This document shows, one piece after another, positions 6,701 through 34,465 of a stretch of DNA of 34,465 nucleotides. Made by a program: the position numbers and the translations under genes. This DNA is from Chitinophagales bacterium. Lineage in GTDB: Bacteria; Bacteroidota; Bacteroidia; Chitinophagales; UBA2359. The DNA lies in the NCBI GenBank assembly GCA_020629005.1, contig JAHDEE010000024.1, positions 11,817 through 46,281 of the forward strand, given 5' to 3'. The notes beneath the pieces are model-generated. The model saw nothing but the letters and a program-made list of their open reading frames with translations. It had not been told where the DNA came from and did no database searches. Position 1 is the stretch's first letter. Each line of letters opens with the position of its first letter.

Positions 6701-6874
6701 CTGCGCGGCCGGGTTCGGGTCGCTCCAAATCTTTGATGAAGTTATCCTATTGCTACGTAAGCGAAGTACGCAGCACTAGCCATTTTGAGAAGGTAAAAAA
6801 AGGGGCGGAAACGAAGACCATAACATCTTCACTTCCGCCTCCATACATCAGCGTATTTGTGGTTTATTTGCCGC

Positions 6875-15870: not shown

Positions 15871-16012
15871 GTGCAGAATAGCCCGGATTGCAATGGAAAT
15901 GCAGCCAGCAGACAGGTGCTGAGTCGCCCAGTAGGCGAGGCTGCCAAAAAGCAGACTCGGATACTGGTGCAGCGAAGCCCTGTCTGCTGGCTGCATTGGA
16001 ATGGAAAGCCGG
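15871..16012. repeat. GC-rich interspersed repeat, copy B, containing a perfect 16-bp inverted repeat (GCAGCCAGCAGACAGG 15901-15916 / CCTGTCTGCTGGCTGC 15979-15994)
   Basis: Termini GTGCAGAATAGCCCGGATTGCAATGGAAATG and GCATTGGAATGGAAAGC match copy A at 6550-6700. Intergenic between the hydroxylase and the TonB receptor. Confidence 0.55.
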
Positions 16013-16133
16013 AAGAGCAGAACGCGATGGGTTATGATTCGCTCCAAATATTTTTTATATTTATTTTCCCACAACATATTATTCTATCAATCCATTAGCT
16101 TGAGCTCCGCTCAACAAGAATATTGACTTTGGG

Positions 16134-22258: not shown

Positions 22259-22385
22259 GCTAGTGCTACGCAAACGAAATTCGCACCACCTTTAAGGGCT
22301 GCTATTTCTGTCATACTTCGTTGCTCGTCTGACAAAAAGATAAGCTCCTAAAAGGTGTCACGAGCTTTGTTTACGCAGCACTAGT
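22259..22385. repeat. Roughly 127-bp palindromic (hairpin) MITE/REP-like element; a second copy begins at 34412
   Basis: The left arm GCTAGTGCTACGCAAACGAAATTCGCACCACCTTTAAGGGCTGC is the imperfect reverse complement of the right arm ...AGCTCCTAAAAGGTGTCACGAGCTTTGTTTACGCAGCACTAGT. Nearly identical sequence recurs at 34412-34465. Confidence 0.65.
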
Positions 22386-22505: not shown

Positions 22506-23186
22506 ATGGTTGCACTACCATTGTTCTTTAGAGAGTTAATTGAGGTGTCTTTATATGGAATTAACCTACCATACACGATACTACTAATACTATGCATTTT
22601 CTATTGGATTTTTGTCATTCTTGGTGCAGTAGAGCTGGACGGATTTGACTTTGATTTCGATTTAGACGGCGACATAGATGTAGATCTTGACATGGAAGTT
22701 GGGGACTCTTCACCTGCCTACCTGATCGGGCTTTTCCGATTCCTAAATCTGAATGGAGTACCCTTCATGGTGTTCTTTTCTTTTTTCGCTTTGAGTTTGT
22801 GGATCATCAGCATACTGGGTAATTACTACCTTGGCGGACATGCTGCACTATTCGCACTGCTGCTGATCATTCCAAATTTGTTTTTAAGTGCTTTAGCAGG
22901 CAAAGTGCTTTCCCGACCCTTTGTGCCCCTATTCAAAAACCTTGACGATGTAGCCAAGCCATTAGAGCTTGCAGGAGATACTTGCGAAGTAGTTTTCAGC
23001 TTTGAAAAGAATGAAGTGAGCCAAGGTCGCATTCTAAAAGATGACGACACCCTCCTGGTCAGCATCATGATTGACGAGATGGCTCCATTCACATCCCTAA
23101 ATAAAGGAGATAAAGTAACCATTTACAATAAAGTGAAACAGGGTGACAGCATTGTCTATACTGTCTCACAGCTACCAAAAATTTAA
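22506..23186 (+). CDS. NfeD/YqiJ-like membrane protein (partner of flotillin) with C-terminal OB-fold-like domain
   Basis: Several TM helices. Acidic loop DGFDFDFDLDGDIDVDLDMEVGD. C-terminal beta-rich region (GDTCEVVFSFEKNEVSQGRILKDDDTLLVS...GDKVTIYNKVKQGDSIVYTV) typical of NfeD. Stop lies 10 nt before the flotillin start. Confidence 0.6.
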   Translation: MVALPLFFRELIEVSLYGINLPYTILLILCIFYWIFVILGAVELDGFDFDFDLDGDIDVDLDMEVGDSSPAYLIGLFRFLNLNGVPFMVFFSFFALSLWIISILGNYYLGGHAALFALLLIIPNLFLSALAGKVLSRPFVPLFKNLDDVAKPLELAGDTCEVVFSFEKNEVSQGRILKDDDTLLVSIMIDEMAPFTSLNKGDKVTIYNKVKQGDSIVYTVSQLPKI

Positions 23187-23196
23187 ACCCCAATAA

Positions 23197-25269
23197 ATGA
23201 TACCACAAATCGCAATTTCTATCCTGGTGATAGCTGTCATAATCACCCTCGGTGTAGTCTTCCTAATTTCAAAATTGTACCAAAAGGTTTCTCAGGGCCA
23301 GGCATTGGTAAAAACCGGGATGGGTGGAGTCAAAGTCAGCTTCAATGGCATGACTGTAATTCCGGTTTTTCAAAAATCGGAAGTCATGGACATCTCCGTA
23401 AAGGCGATGGAGATTACAAGAATGGGCAAAGATGGGCTTATCTGTCAGGACAATCTAAGAGCTGACATCAAGGTGGTTTTCTTTGTGAGAGTGAACAAGA
23501 GTCAAGAGGATGTTATTAATGTAGCTCAGACGATCGGCTGCCAAAGAGCTTCCGATATCAATACCTTAAACAATCTCTTTGAGGCAAAATTTTCTGAAGC
23601 CTTGAAGACAGTAGGAAAGACCTTCAATTTTGTCGATCTATATGAACAAAGAGAAGAGTTTCGGAAGAAAATTTTCCAAATGTCAGCACAGGACCTGAAT
23701 GGATATACTCTGGATAACTGCTCAATAGATTACCTGGAACAAACTCCTGTTGAGTTTTTGAGACCGGACAATATCCTGGATTCACAGGGGATTCGCAAGA
23801 TCACTGAGCTCACGGCCGAGCAGAACATGGCCGCGAATTTTATTCGGAAAGAGGAGGAGAAAACGCTGAAGCGTCAAAACGTTGAAGCCAAAGAGGCCAT
23901 CCTGGAATTAGAGAGACAGCTGGCGGAGAAAGAGGAACGTCAGAAGCGGGAAATTGCCAATATTAAGGCAAGAGAAACCTCAGAAATCAAGAAAGTCAAC
24001 GAAGAAGAACGCCTAAAGGCAGAACAGGTCCGAATCTCGACAGACGAAGCCCTTGAAATTGCTGAAGAGAATCGCATGAGACAGGTGATAGTGGCCTTGA
24101 AGAGCAAAGAAAGAACAGAGGCAGTAGAGAACGAGCGAGTAGAGAAGGATATGCTGTTGGAGCGAACCGAAAAAGAGAAGATTGTAGCCCTTGCCGAAAT
24201 CGAGAAAGAAAAGGTAGTGGAAGTTGAGCGTAAGAACATTCAGGATGTAATTCGCGAAAGAGTGGCGGTGGAAAAGAAGGTGGTAGAAGAAAAAGAAAAG
24301 ACCAAGGATCTGGAAGCCATCATGACGGCAAACCGGGTCAAGGAAGTGGCGATCACTAAAGCGAAAGAAACAGGTGAGAGCACCGTGATCTTGGAAACGA
24401 AAAAAGCGGAGGCTGCAAAACTAGCCGCTGAAATTGAAGCGGAAAAACTCATTATCGACGCCGAAGCAAGCAAAAATGCCGCGATGCGGGATGCAGAAGC
24501 ACGCAAAATAAACGCTGAGGCAAAAGCCGAGGAAGAAGCTACCCTTGGACTCTCTGAAGCTAAAGTAATCGAAGCTAAAGCTGAGGCAATGGAAAAAGAG
24601 GGTAAGATTGAAGCTGCTCTTATTGAAATGAAAATGAAAGCAGAGGCAGAAGGAATCAAATCCAGATCTTCTGCAATGCTCGATGAAGGAAAGGTAGAAG
24701 CTGAAGTGATGGAAATGAAAGCACTTGCAGATGCAAAAGGAGTGGCAGAAAAGGCCCTGGCCATGCAGAAGCTAAATGAAGCTGGGAAAGAACACGAAGA
24801 ATTCAAACTCAGATTGGAGAAAGAAAAGGAAATTGAACTTGCCCGAATCAACATTGAACAGAGCATCGCTGAAGCTAAAGCTAATGTGCTTGCAGAGGCA
24901 CTTAAGAATTCAAATATCGATATTGTGGGCGGAGAAGGAGAGTTCTTTGAAAAGATATCCAATGCAGTAACCAGAGGTAAGTCATTCGATAAGCTCGTAG
25001 GTTCCAGCGAAAACCTCAGCGCATTTAGAGATGCGATACTTCAGTCGACAGCAAATGGAGACAGCCATGATAACCTGTTCTACAAAATCAGAGCGCTGAT
25101 AGCGAGTACAGGAATTGACTCTGAAATGATCAAAAACATGTCTATAGCGGCTACCTTGCTACAGCTGCAAAGCCATGTGGGAGACGAAGATAAAAGCATG
25201 GTAGCCAGGCTTTTAGACTCAGTAAAGCAACTAGGAATTGCAGATAGGAGCACAAGCTCTATCTTGTAA
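23197..25269 (+). CDS. Flotillin-family SPFH/band-7 protein (YqiK/FloT-like) with extended E/A/K-rich coiled coil
   Basis: N-terminal TM, then the SPFH core (QGQALVKTGMGGVKVSF...VIPVFQKSEVMDISVKAMEI...CQDNLRADIKVVFFVRVN). A roughly 350-aa low-complexity EA-rich helical region follows. Stands in the typical nfeD-flotillin operon arrangement. Confidence 0.8.
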   Translation: MIPQIAISILVIAVIITLGVVFLISKLYQKVSQGQALVKTGMGGVKVSFNGMTVIPVFQKSEVMDISVKAMEITRMGKDGLICQDNLRADIKVVFFVRVNKSQEDVINVAQTIGCQRASDINTLNNLFEAKFSEALKTVGKTFNFVDLYEQREEFRKKIFQMSAQDLNGYTLDNCSIDYLEQTPVEFLRPDNILDSQGIRKITELTAEQNMAANFIRKEEEKTLKRQNVEAKEAILELERQLAEKEERQKREIANIKARETSEIKKVNEEERLKAEQVRISTDEALEIAEENRMRQVIVALKSKERTEAVENERVEKDMLLERTEKEKIVALAEIEKEKVVEVERKNIQDVIRERVAVEKKVVEEKEKTKDLEAIMTANRVKEVAITKAKETGESTVILETKKAEAAKLAAEIEAEKLIIDAEASKNAAMRDAEARKINAEAKAEEEATLGLSEAKVIEAKAEAMEKEGKIEAALIEMKMKAEAEGIKSRSSAMLDEGKVEAEVMEMKALADAKGVAEKALAMQKLNEAGKEHEEFKLRLEKEKEIELARINIEQSIAEAKANVLAEALKNSNIDIVGGEGEFFEKISNAVTRGKSFDKLVGSSENLSAFRDAILQSTANGDSHDNLFYKIRALIASTGIDSEMIKNMSIAATLLQLQSHVGDEDKSMVARLLDSVKQLGIADRSTSSIL

Positions 25270-25338
25270 TCCATAGACTGGGCATCTGTAATTCGCAGGT
25301 GCCCCGCTTCTATTGCTTCATCTATAAGAATCCAACCA

Positions 25339-28300
25339 ATGTCAGATCAGCCAAAGGAAATCCAGCTGGATGGGGGCTCCTATGAAATCATACGAAATCG
25401 CCTCAACAGCAGCAAGGCCACTCTGGAGCAAAAACTGCAAAAGCTCAACGAAAGCAGAAAGGAGGTCTTCGGTGGAATGGAAACCCAGCTGTCCGGGACC
25501 CTTAGAATCAACAGCGGAAACAATTGTACTGCGCAAGATATTGTAGCCTTAGGCAACATCTGTATCTTCGGTTTCAACGTACACATAGGTTTGCGCTCTG
25601 TCACTAAAGTTGAAGATGTTTTTGCTGTCTACGAGCGTACAACCGACTCCTTCAATCATATCGAAAGTGATCTCATTGCGGACCAGCAGTTCGCAACAGA
25701 CCTGGAGAATCTATACAAGTATTACAGAGACTCCCACTTCTATAGATTTTGGCAACACGATGGCTACCTCTACATGGTGTTTCAAGTCTCAGAGAAGGTA
25801 GGAGACTTTAAGGCTTTCAAGTGGCTGATCAAAGAGAACAGCCTTGAATACATTGATAATAGGAGCGAGCATGAATACCGCTTTCCCGAGCAATATGAAT
25901 TCGTTTGGCAGAAGGCAGGACGGGATGATTTTCGATCGGGAACACATGCCCACGTCAGCATACTCGATAAGGTATTTGTAGAGACCATAGGTGGAGACCT
26001 GACCATCAAGATTGAGGATAATACGGACGATGGAAAAGGGATCTACAGCGAGGCGGTAGAGCAAAAGGATCAGCAATTGGATGACGGCGAATATCGCTAC
26101 GCTAAGATGAATGGTTTGATTGCCCTCGAAATCAAGCCCTATCTTGAGGAAAGCCGATACTTTATTTTCAATGAAAAGCTTGGCACAGTTGTTCGAGTGC
26201 CAGCAATGAGTCAAAGCTGCCGACTATTACCGGGTGAACAAGGTTTGATTTTCAGTAACGGATACTACCTACACACAGGAGAATTTAAATCCTTCGAACT
26301 GAAGGTTGAAGAGGCCGAATTTGAACGCAAAATTCTGTCTCTAAATGGAGAGGATCATCTCTTTGTATTCTTCCTTCCTAAAGAGGGGCGATACGTGCTC
26401 ATGTCCTATAATGTGATTGCCCAGCAAGTGGGCACACCTATCTTGTGCAATGGCTACTCGATATTTCCAGACGGTAGCCTGTGCAATTTCAGACGTGATC
26501 CGGAGCCTACAAAGTATCATCAGATACAGGTTTGGAATACTCCATATGGCAAAGAATTGCATAGCAACGAGCAGGCAAAAGACAGGCTACTATTTAAGGT
26601 TGGCAACAAGAACATAGTAGAAGGCATGTCAGAGTGTGCCTCCCTTTTATCTTTGCTACGCAAGGAAGAACCCTATGCTGATCTCTATCGTGACATTGTA
26701 AGTCTCTGCACCAATATCCGAGACAGTTACTACTGGTTGGGCGATCCTGAGGCTGAAAATATCGCTGCTACTATCGCGGAGATAAGCGACTCTTCAAACA
26801 CAGCAATAGATGAGTACCAAAAGGTAAAGAACATCCGTAGCAACACCGCCAAGGCTATTGCCGATGTGGAACAAGAGGCAACCAAACTGTTCAAGAAAGT
26901 TGATACCATCAGCATGGACAACATCCTCAATTTTGTGGATACCCTGTCCGAACTCAGTAGACTGAGAGGTCAGCTGCTTCAGGTGAGGGACCTGCGTTAT
27001 GCTGATACAGCACTGTTGGATAAGCTCGACGAAGCCGGTAAAGAACGTGGGGAAACGCTGGAAAAAGAGTGTGTGCGTTTTCTTCTAAAGGAAGAATCAT
27101 TGAGCGACTACGAAACCAGCATCAACAAACTTGGCGAAGATGCTTCTGCAATTTCGAGTTCCGTGCAAGCTGAAGAGCTGGATGAAACATCTCAAAAGCT
27201 CAGTGGAGACCTCGATCTCCTAATAGAAATTGTCAGTAGTCTAAAGATTGAAGATCCAACGGAGACTACTCGCATTATCGAGCGAATCTCAGCACTTTAT
27301 GGAGTGCTTAATGGCAACCGAAGCACAATAAGAAACAGGCGAAAGGAATTACGGTCCCGGGAATCAAAGGGAGAATTTGAGGCACAGTTTCGTTTACTGG
27401 AACAGAGTGTAATCAACTATCTTGAGATTTCCGATACAACTGACAAATGCGAGGAATATCTGACCAAATTGATGGTAAGCCTCGAAGAAATGGAAGGCAA
27501 GTTCGTCGAAGACGAACAATTCATCGAAATTCTGACAGATAAACGGGAAGAGATTCACACGGCCTTCGAAGGAAAACGCCTTCAGTTGTTGGAAAGCCGC
27601 AATCGTAGGGCAGTGGGTTTGGCTTCCTCAGCGGAAAGACTCCTATCTGGAATTAAGAGCCGGGCGCTCAAGCTTGAAGATCCAACGCTACTTAACGGCT
27701 TTTTTGCCGCCGATATGATGGTTGACAAGGTGCGCAATATAATCAACACCTTGAATGGACTGGGAGACAGCGTAAAAGCTGATGAAGTCGCCGCTCAACT
27801 CTCGGCTGGTCGTGAAGAAGTTCTGCGAAAACTCCGTGACAAATCGGAGCTGTTTGTCAGCGGTAAGAATGTCATCAAATTTGGCAAGCACCAGTTCTCC
27901 GTAAACACCCAGCCGCTTGATCTTACCCTGATTCCCAAAGCCGACGAGCTATCCTTGCACCTCACAGGCAGCAATTTTTTCCTTCCAGTAGAAGACTTGC
28001 AACTCAATGCCGCTAAGGAAATATGGGAGCAGCACTTCCTATCAGAAAACAGCGAAATCTATCGAGCAGAGTACTTATTACACGGCTATCTGAAAAGCAT
28101 CGGAGGTGCCGCTAATATGAATGCCGGCAAGCTACTATCCGACCTCCAGGACTTCGCCTCCACCCGACTCAACGAAGGTTACGAAAAAGGTATTCACGAT
28201 TTCGATGCTCAGGCAATTGGCACGGCAATCATGCAGCGGAACCAGGAGATAGATCTGCTATACTGTAGTGAACTCAACAGAGCCTTTGCACAGTACTACT

Positions 28301-30165
28301 GGATGCAGATACTGGAAGAAGAACAGAAAAGCATTTGGACAAAGCAGATCAAAACAGCAGCTATCATCCTTAAGACCTTTCCAAACTCGCAGGATTTTGA
28401 AGAGCTCATTTATAGAATTCAGGAAGACATCGAGTCCAGAGAATTACCTGTTCTCTTGCGTGAAGCTGTGCCATCAAAAGCGGCAGAATACTTATTCCGC
28501 CAAATCCTTGTCGCCGATAGCTTTGTCATCGCCAAAGAATCTTCTATACTGCAAAGAGACTTTCTTGGACATCTGAAGACCGTCAAAGCGCTGAAGAGCT
28601 ATGAAAGTAGCGTAGCAGCACTTGAGGAGAATCCAGAGCAGAAACTGGAGACCATAGTAGGTTGGATAAAATCCTTTTGTAAAAGTGCCACCCGACCTGA
28701 ATCTACCAACAGCATTATTGAGACGGCTGTACATCTCGCATTCGCCAATAAGGGCCAGGTCATCCACAGTGATACACTGCTAAAAGTCGCACAGTTAAAA
28801 GGCGATCACCCCTTGATCAACGAGGGCAAGTATGAAATACATTATCACGAGTTTTTTGACAAGCTCGACAGATACCAGGCCGAACATATTCCCAAAATGA
28901 AGGCCTATCAGGAGCGAAAGAAAGCCTACATTGAAGACTGGAGAAATAGAATGCGCCTGGAAGAACTAAAACCGCAGGTACTATCCTCCTTTATCAGAAA
29001 CAAGCTGATCGATAATGTCTACCTACACGTCATCGGCGATAATCTCGCGAAGCAAATTGGAACTGTGGGCGAAAATACACGCACCGATCGAATGGGCCTC
29101 TTGCTTCTGATATCTCCACCAGGATATGGTAAGACCACCTTGATGGAGTACATCGCTGATCGACTGGGACTCACTTTTGTCAAAGTCAACGGGCCGGCTA
29201 TCGGTCATGAGGTCACCTCAGTGGATCCGGAGCAGGCTCCAAACGCTGCCGCAAAGCAGGAGCTGGAGAAACTAAACATGTCTTTTGAGATTGGTGACAA
29301 TCTAATGATCTACATCGACGACATCCAGCATTGTAGCCCGGAATTCCTGCAAAAATTCATCTCCCTCTGCGATGGTCAGCGGAAGATTGAGGGTACTTAC
29401 AATGGAAGGAGCAAAACCTATGACTTCAGAGGCAAAAAAGTAGCCGTAGTCATGGCTGGCAACCCTTACACCGAATCAGGGGAGAAATTTCAGATTCCAG
29501 ACATGCTTGCCAATCGAGCAGATGTTTACAATCTTGGCGATATTCTGGCAGGAGCACATGAAGATTTTGAGAATAGCTACATTGAAAACTGTCTCACATC
29601 CAACCCGACGCTAAAACGACTAGCCAACAAAAGCATGGCAGATGTTTATACACTTTTGAAGAAATCCAGCGAAGATCAGCTCGTCGGTATAGAGTTGGAG
29701 GCAAACCACAGTCCCGAAGAAATAAAAGAGTACGTGGGTGTGATCCGCAAATTGCAAAGTATTCGAGATGTAATCCTCAAAGTTAATCAGGAGTACATCA
29801 AATCCGCCGCCATGTCTGATGAGTATCGTACCGCTCCTCCATTCAAATTGCAAGGGTCCTATAGAAATATGAATAAGCTTGCCGAAAAGGTAGTACCTGT
29901 GATGAATGACCAGGAAGTAGCGTCAATAATCATGGATCACTACGATAGTGAAGCACAAGCGCTAACCAAAAACGCGGAAGCCAACCTTCTGCTGTTCAAG
30001 CAGCTGGTTGGCAAGCTAAGTCCGGAAGACAAAGACCGGCTAGATTATATCCTTGGCGTTTTCCGAGAACAACAAGCCAAACAAAATGCCAACAACATGC
30101 AGGCTGTTATACGTGAAATGCAAGCATTCAATGATCTGCTAAAAGGCATAGGAGAAAAAATGTAG
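25339..30165 (+). CDS. Giant (1608 aa) multidomain protein with a single dynein/midasin-type AAA_5 (MoxR-like) ATPase module near the C-terminus; function unknown
   Basis: Single uninterrupted ORF 69 nt after the flotillin stop. Walker A LLLISPPGYGKTTL at about nt 29110-29140. Walker B MIYIDDIQH at about 29305-29330. The DFRGKKVAVVMAGNPYTESGEKFQIPDMLANRADV block matches the FRxxAxxNP...G.K.LP..L.NRF.V signature of AAA_5/midasin-type modules. The N-terminal roughly 430 aa is beta-rich, and the roughly 700-aa middle is helical. Confidence 0.75.
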   Translation: MSDQPKEIQLDGGSYEIIRNRLNSSKATLEQKLQKLNESRKEVFGGMETQLSGTLRINSGNNCTAQDIVALGNICIFGFNVHIGLRSVTKVEDVFAVYERTTDSFNHIESDLIADQQFATDLENLYKYYRDSHFYRFWQHDGYLYMVFQVSEKVGDFKAFKWLIKENSLEYIDNRSEHEYRFPEQYEFVWQKAGRDDFRSGTHAHVSILDKVFVETIGGDLTIKIEDNTDDGKGIYSEAVEQKDQQLDDGEYRYAKMNGLIALEIKPYLEESRYFIFNEKLGTVVRVPAMSQSCRLLPGEQGLIFSNGYYLHTGEFKSFELKVEEAEFERKILSLNGEDHLFVFFLPKEGRYVLMSYNVIAQQVGTPILCNGYSIFPDGSLCNFRRDPEPTKYHQIQVWNTPYGKELHSNEQAKDRLLFKVGNKNIVEGMSECASLLSLLRKEEPYADLYRDIVSLCTNIRDSYYWLGDPEAENIAATIAEISDSSNTAIDEYQKVKNIRSNTAKAIADVEQEATKLFKKVDTISMDNILNFVDTLSELSRLRGQLLQVRDLRYADTALLDKLDEAGKERGETLEKECVRFLLKEESLSDYETSINKLGEDASAISSSVQAEELDETSQKLSGDLDLLIEIVSSLKIEDPTETTRIIERISALYGVLNGNRSTIRNRRKELRSRESKGEFEAQFRLLEQSVINYLEISDTTDKCEEYLTKLMVSLEEMEGKFVEDEQFIEILTDKREEIHTAFEGKRLQLLESRNRRAVGLASSAERLLSGIKSRALKLEDPTLLNGFFAADMMVDKVRNIINTLNGLGDSVKADEVAAQLSAGREEVLRKLRDKSELFVSGKNVIKFGKHQFSVNTQPLDLTLIPKADELSLHLTGSNFFLPVEDLQLNAAKEIWEQHFLSENSEIYRAEYLLHGYLKSIGGAANMNAGKLLSDLQDFASTRLNEGYEKGIHDFDAQAIGTAIMQRNQEIDLLYCSELNRAFAQYYWMQILEEEQKSIWTKQIKTAAIILKTFPNSQDFEELIYRIQEDIESRELPVLLREAVPSKAAEYLFRQILVADSFVIAKESSILQRDFLGHLKTVKALKSYESSVAALEENPEQKLETIVGWIKSFCKSATRPESTNSIIETAVHLAFANKGQVIHSDTLLKVAQLKGDHPLINEGKYEIHYHEFFDKLDRYQAEHIPKMKAYQERKKAYIEDWRNRMRLEELKPQVLSSFIRNKLIDNVYLHVIGDNLAKQIGTVGENTRTDRMGLLLLISPPGYGKTTLMEYIADRLGLTFVKVNGPAIGHEVTSVDPEQAPNAAAKQELEKLNMSFEIGDNLMIYIDDIQHCSPEFLQKFISLCDGQRKIEGTYNGRSKTYDFRGKKVAVVMAGNPYTESGEKFQIPDMLANRADVYNLGDILAGAHEDFENSYIENCLTSNPTLKRLANKSMADVYTLLKKSSEDQLVGIELEANHSPEEIKEYVGVIRKLQSIRDVILKVNQEYIKSAAMSDEYRTAPPFKLQGSYRNMNKLAEKVVPVMNDQEVASIIMDHYDSEAQALTKNAEANLLLFKQLVGKLSPEDKDRLDYILGVFREQQAKQNANNMQAVIREMQAFNDLLKGIGEKM

Positions 30166-30212: not shown

Positions 30213-30797
30213 CTAGCCCTCGTCCTCATTTTGAAGATATTCAGCCGCCCGGTCTAGCTCCTCATAGAATTCCGCTCCATATTTGCGGATCAAGGCCTCC
30301 TTGACAAACTTGTAGATCGGTAGCTTATGTTTCTTGCCATTGGTGCAAGCCGCACTGCAAATGTCCCAACGATCATAGTTGACTGCATCATAGTGCGCAT
30401 GCTTGGTAATGCGCACGGGATATAGATGACAGCTGACGGGCTTCTTCCAATCTGTCTTTCCTTCTTCGTAAGCCTGTTCAAAAGCACATTTGGCAATACC
30501 CTTTTCATCGTAGTTAAGGTAAACACAGGCAGCACCATTTATCAGAGGCGTTTCATTATAGCCCTCTTTCACATTCCAAAGCACATAACCCATCTTGCTC
30601 ACCTCAGCCCTGCTTCGCTCACTCAATTTATCCTCAATAAGTGGATAAACTTCTTTGATCTTCTCCACTTCTTCAGGCTCTAGAGGTGCCCCACCATCTC
30701 CCTCAACACAGCAAACTCCCTTACATGCATCCAGATCGCAAAGAAACTGTTCCTCAACAATCTCATCACTCACTATTTTATCTCCAATGACTATCAT
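30213..30797 (-). CDS. DUF3109-like Cys-rich hypothetical protein
   Basis: Start MIVIGDKIVSDEIVEEQFLCDLDACKGVCCVEGDGG resembles the DUF3109 N-terminal Cys cluster common in Bacteroidota. Convergent with the giant ATPase gene. Confidence 0.5.
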   Translation of the reverse strand: MIVIGDKIVSDEIVEEQFLCDLDACKGVCCVEGDGGAPLEPEEVEKIKEVYPLIEDKLSERSRAEVSKMGYVLWNVKEGYNETPLINGAACVYLNYDEKGIAKCAFEQAYEEGKTDWKKPVSCHLYPVRITKHAHYDAVNYDRWDICSAACTNGKKHKLPIYKFVKEALIRKYGAEFYEELDRAAEYLQNEDEG

Positions 30798-34411: not shown

Positions 34412-34465
34412 ACTAGTGCTGCGTAAACAAAGTATGTGACACCTTTAAGGAGCTTATCTTTTTGT
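34412..34465. repeat. Truncated copy (one arm) of the palindromic element seen at 22259-22385, cut by the window end
   Basis: ACTAGTGCTGCGTAAACAAAGTATGTGACACCTTTAAGGAGCTTATCTTTTTGT is about 90% identical to the reverse complement of 22332-22385. Confidence 0.6.

Follow-up and report, generated by a model that had tools for sequence, protein, structure and literature searches.

The locus

The window (the whole stretch of DNA analysed, 34,465 nucleotides) carries three consecutive same-strand genes encoding a small membrane protein, a flotillin and a giant soluble AAA+ ATPase. The features of the locus are given below in window coordinates, with amino acid (aa) positions counted within each protein.

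22259–22384: palindrome upstream of the cassette
22506–23186, + strand: gene for a YqiJ/YuaF-type membrane protein with three transmembrane (TM) segments, 226 aa
YqiJ-type protein, aa 24–42, 87–105 and 113–131: predicted TM segments (TM scan)
YqiJ-type protein, aa 43–68: acidic D-x-D loop
YqiJ-type protein, about aa 150–226: small C-terminal domain, alignable to the corresponding end of E. coli YqiJ
23197–25269, + strand: gene for a YqiK-type flotillin (SPFH), 690 aa
23209–23265, + strand: N-terminal and sole TM segment of the flotillin, aa 5–23 (TM scan)
23284–23712, + strand: SPFH/Band_7 domain of the flotillin, aa 30–172
25280–25304, + strand: GC-rich stem-loop with a 10-bp stem, inside the 69-nt spacer (terminator-like scan)
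25339–30165, + strand: gene for the giant soluble AAA+ ATPase, DUF3686/DUF7902 family, 1608 aa
25372–26538, + strand: N-terminal helix (aa 12–44) and beta-propeller (aa 50–400) of the giant protein
26587–28740, + strand: helical middle of about 700 aa, with bundles at aa 417–835 including DUF7902 at aa 587–670
Giant protein, aa 845–883: small beta domain
Giant protein, aa 909–1134: second helical domain
29002–30162, + strand: single MoxR/AAA_5-type AAA+ module with helical lid, including a beta-hairpin before sensor 1
29113–29139, + strand: Walker A, SPPGYGKTT, aa 1259–1267
29314–29331, + strand: Walker B, IDDIQH, aa 1326–1331, with Asp-Asp in place of the usual Asp-Glu
Giant protein, N1375 and R1393: sensor-1 candidate and candidate arginine finger
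Giant protein, aa 1505–1509: lid motif QGSYR, sensor-2 candidate
30213–30797, − strand: convergent DUF3109 gene, 3′ of the cassette

The layout agrees in full with the initial annotation, which had placed three ORFs in one same-strand unit with intergenic gaps of 10 nt (YqiJ-type/flotillin) and 69 nt (flotillin/ATPase), closed by a convergent gene. It had also noted the upstream palindrome, which folds at −49.6 kcal/mol (z=−5.7) with just 8 exact bases in common between its arms, and which is a dispersed repeat whose second copy begins at 34413 (pattern search). With over 2600 homologs of the giant protein found at E<1e-10, the three ORFs are genuine genes and not chance ORFs. The gene 5′ of the cassette encodes a CHU_C/T9SS protein; a CarboxypepD_reg TonB-dependent receptor is also among its neighbours in the window.

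The YqiJ-type protein and the flotillin

The 226-aa protein gave no Pfam or NCBIfam match, and Pfam NfeD was absent even at E<10, whether the search used all of the protein or just its last 92 aa. A family alignment against E. coli YqiJ was co-linear (hhalign probability 84.5%, E=6.9e-6), a moderate rather than a strong match on which the YqiJ-type assignment is based. Database names among its homologs include “OB-fold-containig protein” and “DUF1449 family protein”. As judged from these comparisons, the small partner is of the YqiJ/DUF1449 type and not a member of a canonical SPFH–NfeD pair. The label “NfeD-like” first given to it is only loosely right: the protein has the YqiJ profile match and the three TM segments but gave no Pfam NfeD hit.

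The flotillin assignment of the second protein was upheld by a Band_7 match obtained with aa 1–224 alone (E=1.8e-12, 48 bits) and by homology to E. coli YqiK (BLASTP, 29% identity over 439 aa, E=9e-46). The full-length 690-aa sequence gave no Pfam match, and a sequence search of the PDB with the flotillin returned no match. Beyond the SPFH domain the protein is rich in Glu, Lys and Ala, and we take this remainder to be a coiled coil from its composition and from the architecture given by Ravi et al. (mSystems 2024, PMC11237479). Across 63 sequences the flotillin is conserved over most of its length, with the C-terminal tail as its least conserved part; no obvious motif emerged among these sequences that would mark the tail as a specially conserved docking site.

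The first two genes lie in the same order as in E. coli yqiJK and B. subtilis yuaF–floT, with the small TM protein gene first and the flotillin second. E. coli yqiJK has no third gene of such a kind, whereas the window cassette adds the 1608-aa AAA+ ATPase.

The giant ATPase

The giant protein matches PF12458 (DUF3686; E=7e-172, 572 bits against a cut-off of 25) and PF25472 (DUF7902; E=2e-23), together with AAA (E=5.5e-7, 30.5 bits) and, marginally, AAA_5 (E=2.5e-5, 24.7 bits, cut-off 22). Its family comprises 1264 clusters (50% identity, E≤1e-3). Saprospiraceae are among the named top matches, which, with the CHU_C and CarboxypepD_reg TonB-dependent receptor neighbours, points to a Bacteroidota source. 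Whether the protein is a recognisable member of a characterised family, which according to the initial annotation would count against its proposal, can be answered with yes only in a weak sense: it belongs to a large catalogued family, as a DUF3686 and DUF7902 protein that NCBI calls a “DNA repair ATPase”, but a characterised function was not found. No TM segment was predicted by the TM scan, and no nuclease, protease, toxin or DNA-binding domain was detected with Pfam. NCBIfam yielded only sub-threshold RuvB/Pan1 P-loop matches, and PDB searches with the single sequence and with a family profile gave matches confined to the Walker A region.

An AlphaFold model spanning aa 1–1160 (mean pLDDT 84) bears out the beta-rich N-domain and long helical middle that had been proposed from sequence. 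The propeller contains some 28 strands that fall into roughly seven sets of four, a strand count from which the number of blades would be seven. Foldseek against the PDB matched it to Kelch, PON1 and acylaminoacyl-peptidase propellers at probability 1.00 and to WD40 (WDR91) at 0.95. A beta-propeller and a long helical region are typical partner-binding parts.

The AAA_5 motifs described at the outset (Walker A, Walker B and FRGKKVAVVMAGNPYTESGEKFQIPDMLANR) are all present in the translation, and 41 diverse family members show no variation at the Walker A, Walker B, sensor and Arg positions. The Asp-Asp Walker B also occurs in every member compared (n=41) and may, as a sequence feature, mean that the protein is not a motor but hydrolyses ATP slowly or acts as a nucleotide-dependent switch. 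The closest folds to the AAA module are the MoxR remodellers CbbQ and NorQ, followed by midasin and dynein, in agreement with the suggested AAA_5/MoxR/dynein kind of ATPase. The GNP...PDMLANR and GSYR motifs, compared by eye, resemble the MoxR sensor and lid motifs, and some sources label homologs “MoxR-like ATPase”.

The best structural matches to the module thus lie in the MoxR class (CbbQ, NorQ, RavA) and the dynein/midasin AAA_5 group. Unlike in the MoxR class, about 1200 aa made up of the propeller and helical domains come before the single AAA module, and Walker B reads DD instead of DE. MoxR ATPases mature specific enzyme complexes and are usually accompanied by a VWA/MIDAS partner; clustering of the neighbours at 80 loci points to no such conserved partner gene nearby.

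The three genes form a conserved unit in at least six phyla

Synteny of the giant gene with flotillin elsewhere had been proposed as a check, and we carried it out on loci with at least 3.2 kb of sequence upstream of the giant gene (informative loci). Flotillin lies upstream on the same strand at 62 of the 65 informative loci from five phyla: 34/36 in Bacteroidota, 7/7 in Planctomycetota, 15/15 in Verrucomicrobiota, 5/5 in Bacillota and 1/2 in Desulfobacterota. A YqiJ-like gene lies upstream of flotillin at 60 of the 65. The giant gene stands without a nearby flotillin at three loci (L021, L022 and L039). Additionally, all three actinomycetotal loci have the YqiJ-like, flotillin and giant genes in the same order, one clade being represented by a protein (P0248) only 26% identical to the giant protein of the window; in Nonomuraea the genes follow one another without a gap, abutting or overlapping. 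The three genes are a conserved unit that travels together in at least six phyla, and the refuting condition set in the initial annotation, a lack of synteny elsewhere, does not hold.

Mean pairwise identity is 49% for the ATPase and 56% for the flotillin, and the pairwise divergence of the three proteins is correlated (r about 0.78–0.80). This correlation adds little, as it is expected for any co-inherited genes. Clustering of neighbours at 80 loci revealed no conserved further gene and no conserved client gene; by this clustering, a VWA/MIDAS partner does not seem to be part of the cassette.

A stem-loop separates the flotillin and ATPase genes

The unit had been described as a tightly spaced operon. 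The gaps of 10 and 69 nt fit this description, but the 69-nt spacer holds a strong hairpin. The fold of 25262–25345 has z=−3.3, and the local hairpin reaches −18.4 kcal/mol (z=−6). Among related loci with a spacer of 25–160 nt (n=32), a strong hairpin (z≤−3) is found at the same place in about 20, with unrelated sequences. The stem-loop may act in termination, attenuation or RNA stabilisation, so it is not assured that the ATPase is transcribed together with the other two genes. In many genomes unrelated genes are inserted between the flotillin and ATPase genes. The inserted ORFs share no relationship that would indicate a conserved fourth gene in the spacer; judged by eye from sequence, they resemble IS200-like, DUF559-like and lipoprotein genes.

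The cassette is the abbreviated form of a described operon

The proposal of an undescribed system fails on the literature. Ravi et al. (mSystems 2024, PMC11237479) reported a CesT/Tir–PspA–YqiJ–flotillin–AAA+ operon together with an “abbreviated operon” without the CesT/Tir–PspA pair, and their comparative genomics, which places it among phage-shock (membrane-stress) gene neighbourhoods, gives the neighbourhood and domain architecture of each protein. The window cassette is this abbreviated form of the PspA-associated flotillin operon: the three architectures and the gene order are the same, and all proteins of the abbreviated form are found in the window. It differs from the full operon in having neither the CesT/Tir–PspA pair nor the regulator; tblastn with 10 query sequences each for PspA, CesT and HTH–S24 gave no match in the window. 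In the flavobacterial loci examined the published order is complete, down to the divergent cHTH+protease regulator. We equate them with the published example row, Dokdonia donghaensis ANH61663.1 (PMC11237479), because architecture and gene order are identical in these related Flavobacteriaceae.

PspA flanks the Bacteroidota loci at 28 of 36, CesT_Tir_1 at 23 of 36 and a divergent HTH_3+S24 regulator at 26 of 36 (profile matches PspA PF04012, E=2e-44; CesT_Tir_1, E=7e-56). All three were absent from the 29 informative loci in the four remaining phyla scanned and from the surroundings of the three actinobacterial cassettes. Since PspA flanks only Bacteroidota loci in this set, the constant partner of the ATPase is flotillin/YqiJ and not PspA.

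To the published description the present analysis adds an ATPase fold closest to MoxR proteins (CbbQ/NorQ), a linkage to flotillin far tighter than that to PspA, and the recurrent spacer stem-loop. No experimental work on the function of the cassette turned up in the literature searched, and searches for DUF3686/PF12458, flotillin–MoxR and YqiK–YqiJ–ATPase returned nothing relevant there.

Proposed role in remodelling flotillin assemblies

To our knowledge, no mechanism is known for the building, opening and recycling of bacterial flotillin scaffolds. A well-conserved AAA+ ATPase encoded beside flotillin is an obvious candidate for the missing energy-dependent step. With moderate confidence, we consider its most likely role to be the ATP-driven remodelling of flotillin/YqiJ membrane assemblies. 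This model starts from the observed protein identities, ATPase fold class and gene order across six phyla. Flotillin would be anchored by its single N-terminal TM helix with its bulk on the cytoplasmic side, the orientation indicated by the Lys residues that follow the helix, and would form SPFH assemblies with YqiJ at the inner membrane face. In the arrangement that we infer, the giant protein would assemble into a ring of the MoxR AAA+ type, probably hexameric, whose long helical arms and beta-propeller heads would contact and dock onto the flotillin/YqiJ assembly as its substrate. Turnover of ATP would drive the building, opening or dismantling of these assemblies under envelope stress, and any PspA in this genome would have to be encoded elsewhere. 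In many Bacteroidota the position of the units 3′ of CesT/Tir–PspA and by a divergent HTH–S24 gene ties them to a phage-shock-type membrane-repair response. Points that count against the model are the poorly conserved flotillin tail, the Asp-Asp Walker B, the spacer hairpin and inserted genes, and the three loci with no flotillin near the giant gene. Of the two functions first suggested for the cassette, membrane remodelling or repair remains the best reading, whereas defence gains no support from PADLOC or from the flanking genes.

We also put forward, tentatively, that the giant ATPase is a dedicated flotillin assembly/disassembly motor, the counterpart for SPFH scaffolds of Vps4 on ESCRT-III, and that it works independently of PspA. 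The near-obligate flotillin/YqiJ linkage in six phyla, against PspA linkage in one, fits such a motor, which if real would be the first energy-dependent regulator of flotillin microdomains. FtsH, an AAA+ protease, is held by the SPFH proteins HflK/C. FtsH–HflK/C and Vps4/ESCRT-III share with the cassette the logic of a genetic pairing between an AAA+ ATPase and an oligomer that scaffolds the membrane, but the giant ATPase has no protease domain, TM anchor or MIT domain and belongs to another AAA+ clade, and the likeness is one of functional analogy only. Assignment as a Vps4-type classical AAA protein with an N-terminal MIT domain was rejected on the same clade difference and missing MIT domain.

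A client-directed chaperone, in which the ATPase would mature, extract or insert membrane-protein clients gathered by flotillin/YqiJ, is a less probable role that still deserves some weight. It would be akin to the maturation of particular enzyme complexes by MoxR ATPases, or to the tethering of FtsH by HflK/C. The nearest folds, CbbQ and NorQ, are remodellers of specific client enzymes, and the beta-propeller could bind peptides or clients; the absence of a conserved client gene among the clustered neighbours of 80 loci and of a Pfam-detected protease domain argues against it. Ravi et al. proposed a chaperone-like or membrane-remodelling, PspA-linked role and favoured chaperone-like assembly of membrane-linked complexes; in their account the abbreviated operon may work with PspA encoded elsewhere (PMC11237479).

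That the ATPase acts on PspA itself, as a Vps4 stand-in that disassembles or recycles PspA polymers at flotillin-marked sites, appears improbable. PspA is a bacterial relative of ESCRT-III, and in 28 of the 36 Bacteroidota loci PspA and CesT/Tir are the immediate upstream neighbours. A 2025 review states that bacteria seem to be without a Vps4-like regulator of PspA/ESCRT-III polymers and describes what Band-7 partners do as undetermined (PMC7619361).

An anti-phage or conflict module built around the large NTPase is very unlikely. Large NTPases that carry sensor-like propellers are frequent in defence systems, and small mobile genes (IS200-like and DUF559-like by eye) are sometimes inserted in the spacer. 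Nonetheless, the three proteins gave no significant match in PADLOC-DB 2.0, where similarity stayed at the P-loop/Walker A level (IetA, E=1.6e-4 over 30 aa; mad8, E=8e-4), and no effector domain (nuclease, protease or toxin) was detected in the giant protein by Pfam. The flanks are housekeeping genes that vary by locus, with no recurrent defence gene in the shared clusters, and the proteins are well conserved and co-diverging, unlike a fast-evolving, patchy island gene. The database name “DNA repair ATPase”, backed by the Pfam/NCBI naming and by weak RuvB matches within about 35 residues around Walker A, has no visible basis and is probably misleading, and the role it implies is the least credible of all: Pfam detects no DNA-binding or nuclease domain, no DNA-related neighbour was seen, the constant neighbours are membrane proteins, the family-profile PDB search found nothing outside the P-loop region, and the literature searched does not mention DUF3686/PF12458.

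The value of the locus is that it steers experiments toward a published prediction, and not that it is a new discovery. Carriers of the cassette include the tractable genera Flavobacterium, Bacteroides, Streptomyces and Sphingobacterium.

Organization of the three-gene cassette

As the initial annotation had observed, the cassette consists of three consecutive plus-strand ORFs, separated by gaps of 10 nt (YqiJ-type/flotillin) and 69 nt (flotillin/ATPase). The cassette and its surroundings in the window comprise:

15876-16019, + strand: Rfam Flavo-1 RNA match, borderline (42.3 bits vs gathering score 42)
22259-22384: near-perfect palindrome, 125 nt, upstream of the cassette (-49.6 kcal/mol, z=-5.7)
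22506-23186, + strand: ORF of the YqiJ-type protein, 226 aa
22632-22709 (aa 43-68): acidic D-x-D-x-D repeat loop between TM1 and TM2 of the YqiJ-like protein
23197-25269, + strand: flotillin ORF, 690 aa
25280-25304: GC-rich stem-loop, 10 bp, in the 69-nt flotillin-to-ATPase spacer
25339-30165, + strand: giant ATPase ORF, 1608 aa
29314-29331 (aa 1326-1331): Walker B of the giant protein, I-D-D-I-Q-H
30213-30797: DUF3109 gene, convergent, 3' of the cassette

Among the genes flanking the cassette in the window are those for a CHU_C/T9SS protein, for a TonB-dependent receptor that carries a CarboxypepD_reg domain, and for MbnP together with di-haem peroxidases, which places the host within Bacteroidota. 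Saprospiraceae are among the named top matches of the giant protein.

The full-length flotillin returns zero Pfam matches, even at E<10. Searched alone, residues 1-224 match Band_7/SPFH (E=1.8e-12), and BLASTP aligns 439 residues with E. coli YqiK at 29% identity (E=9e-46). Over half of the protein is Glu/Lys/Ala-rich, and given this composition we suspect the HMMER composition filter as the cause of the missing full-length match. Automated annotation will therefore often overlook the flotillin of such cassettes. Flotillin orthologs at two other giant-ATPase loci (L083 and L084) also appear as "-" in precomputed Pfam tables. Lys residues follow the single N-terminal TM helix, so the bulk of the flotillin is predicted to be cytoplasmic.

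The 226-aa protein, initially called NfeD-like, has no match in Pfam or NCBIfam. TM prediction gives it three helices, and it contains a very acidic D-x-D loop. The profile of its 15 detectable homologs is co-linear with E. coli YqiJ (hhalign probability 84.5%, E=6.9e-6); some homologs carry the names "OB-fold-containig protein" or "DUF1449 family protein". The profile alignment thus identifies the protein as YqiJ-type and not as a canonical NfeD. The acidic loop, present in 15/15 homologs at variable length, could bind cations.

Flotillin and YqiJ are the constant partners of the giant ATPase

ORFs were called in the best 80 giant-ATPase loci and searched with the window proteins, E. coli YqiJ and YqiK, and the YqiJ-like profile. 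Loci were considered informative if the sequence upstream of the giant gene reached at least 3.2 kb, which left 65. On the same strand and in the same order, flotillin lies upstream in 62 of the 65 and the YqiJ-like gene in 60.

Table. Informative loci with each gene upstream of the giant-ATPase gene.
Bacteroidota: flotillin 34/36; YqiJ-like 34/36
Planctomycetota: flotillin 7/7; YqiJ-like 7/7
Verrucomicrobiota: flotillin 15/15; YqiJ-like 13/15
Bacillota: flotillin 5/5; YqiJ-like 5/5
Desulfobacterota: flotillin 1/2; YqiJ-like 1/2

The same gene order recurs in three actinobacterial loci (Streptacidiphilus, Streptomyces and Nonomuraea). The Streptacidiphilus locus falls in a clade whose representative is just 26% identical to the window's giant protein, and in the Nonomuraea cassette the genes overlap or abut. 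At three loci (L021, L022 and L039) the giant gene is present and flotillin was not found nearby. Together, these counts and the actinobacterial loci make the flotillin/YqiJ-ATPase linkage robust, and the conserved synteny on which the initial annotation had staked its case holds.

The family is large, with more than 2600 homologs at E<1e-10 in a 90%-clustered database, 1264 clusters at 50% identity matching aa 1-1200 of the giant protein at E<=1e-3, and at least 588 matches confirmed by a pattern scan in which each GTDB species was represented by one genome. Its named members are spread over Bacteroidota, Planctomycetota, Verrucomicrobiota, Desulfobacterota, Bacillota (Clostridia), Fibrobacterota and Actinomycetota. 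Some actinobacterial genomes (locus L084; Nonomuraea sp. NBC_00507, N. polychroma) have two giant ATPases of near-identical length listed on the same contig; each of these protein pairs (P0367/P0368 and P0375/P0376) could consist of paralogs or of one gene called from two different starts.

Clustering of all remaining neighbouring ORFs yielded three further conserved families, found in Bacteroidota only:

PspA/IM30 protein (PF04012, E=2e-44): directly upstream, 28/36 Bacteroidota loci
CesT_Tir_1 protein (E=7e-56): upstream of PspA, 23/36 Bacteroidota loci
HTH_3 + Peptidase_S24 regulator: divergent, 26/36 Bacteroidota loci

Flotillin/YqiJ thus accompanies the ATPase in ~95% of informative loci, whereas PspA does so in 28/65 and in Bacteroidota alone. 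The constant partner is flotillin/YqiJ, which argues that the direct context of the ATPase is flotillin assemblies rather than PspA polymers.

An operon joining CesT/Tir-PspA with three further genes has been described (Ravi et al., mSystems 2024; PMC11237479), and its supplementary row for Dokdonia donghaensis has the gene order that we find in other Flavobacteriaceae. No PspA, CesT or HTH-S24 gene lies within the window, which therefore carries the abbreviated form of that operon. Since both the operon and its abbreviated form are in PMC11237479, the cassette is already known as a comparative-genomics prediction, and the claim of an undescribed system falls; we found no experimental work on it in the literature. 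A 2025 review (PMC7619361) describes bacteria as apparently without a Vps4-like ATPase and treats the functions of Band-7 partners as not yet determined. The present analysis adds the predicted MoxR-like fold of the ATPase, flotillin/YqiJ as its constant partner, and the spacer stem-loop.

The flotillin-to-ATPase spacer

The spacer stem-loop could serve to terminate or attenuate transcription, or could mark a processing site. Among 32 related loci whose spacers measure 25-160 nt, ~20 (including L023, L031, L033, L035, L051, L052, L056, L066 and L067) have an equally strong hairpin of unrelated sequence in this place. In many other loci (L002, L047, L024, L028, L032, L075, L006, L011, L016 and L065) unrelated small genes are inserted here, making the spacer a hot spot for insertions. 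On a reading of their sequences only, the inserts resemble IS200/Y1-transposase-like, DUF559-like, lipoprotein and small TM protein genes; no conserved fourth gene was found in the spacer among the loci compared. The hairpin and the inserted genes suggest that the ATPase may be expressed at a level different from, or partly independent of, the yqiJ-flotillin pair, which would fit a scaffold of many subunits attended by a smaller number of ATPase copies.

Fold of the giant ATPase

The 1608-aa protein, in which TM prediction finds no segment, is a large and soluble ATPase. Its parts, from Pfam and from an AlphaFold model of aa 1-1160 (mean pLDDT 84), are:

aa 12-44: N-terminal helix (model)
aa 29-465: DUF3686 (Pfam, E=7e-172)
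aa 50-400: ~28 beta strands in roughly seven groups of four (model)
aa 417-835: long helical bundles (model)
aa 587-670: DUF7902 (Pfam)
aa 845-883: small beta domain (model)
aa 909-1134: second helical domain (model)
aa 1255-1380: AAA and AAA_5 (Pfam, weak)

A model of aa 1150-1608 (pLDDT 79.5) contains an AAA+ alpha/beta core, a helical lid and a beta-hairpin ahead of sensor 1, all of which support the earlier AAA_5 call. By its modelled fold, the ATPase module is MoxR-like and falls outside the classical Vps4/p97 clade. Walker A (SPPGYGKT), Walker B (DD-x-QH), GNPY, F-x-x-PDML-x-NR-x-D and the lid motif QGSYR are invariant in 41 family members, down to 29% identity. The Walker B Asp-Asp, replacing the usual Asp-Glu, is a family-wide peculiarity (41/41 diverse members) that may bear on the rate of ATP hydrolysis.

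Proposed role of the cassette

Our confidence in the identities of the three proteins and in their functional linkage is high. The initial observation is upheld and its interpretation in part: the conserved unit is real and probably a membrane-remodelling machine, but its novelty falls. Overall, we lean towards a MoxR-type ATPase ring that remodels flotillin/YqiJ assemblies; the specific action of the ATPase on these assemblies is more tentative. The ATPase would form a ring, its propeller and helical arms would dock onto cytoplasmic flotillin/YqiJ assemblies, and these would be remodelled in an ATP-dependent manner under envelope stress. In Bacteroidota, it would act jointly with PspA and the CesT-like chaperone, controlled by the HTH-S24 regulator.

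A client-directed chaperone role for the ATPase is one rival to this reading. Another is a Vps4-like action on PspA. A defence system, the alternative raised initially, lacks support. DNA repair has its only footing in the database name "DNA repair ATPase", to which a short, RuvB-like P-loop stretch was the sole link found; no solved structure related by sequence beyond the P-loop was found. The cassette, widely conserved and tractable, is a putative means of energy-dependent control over flotillin scaffolds in bacteria.

Other elements in the window

The palindrome upstream of the cassette is a dispersed REP/MITE-like element and is not cassette-specific. Its 16-nt ends, CTAGTGCTRCGYAAAC, are repeated within the window (4 matches vs 0.02 expected by chance). 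A second copy, of which ~50 nt closely match the reverse complement of the first, runs from 34413 to the window end, and a short relative lies at 6747-6780. The Flavo-1 match sits between a fatty-acid hydroxylase gene and a TonB-dependent receptor gene.
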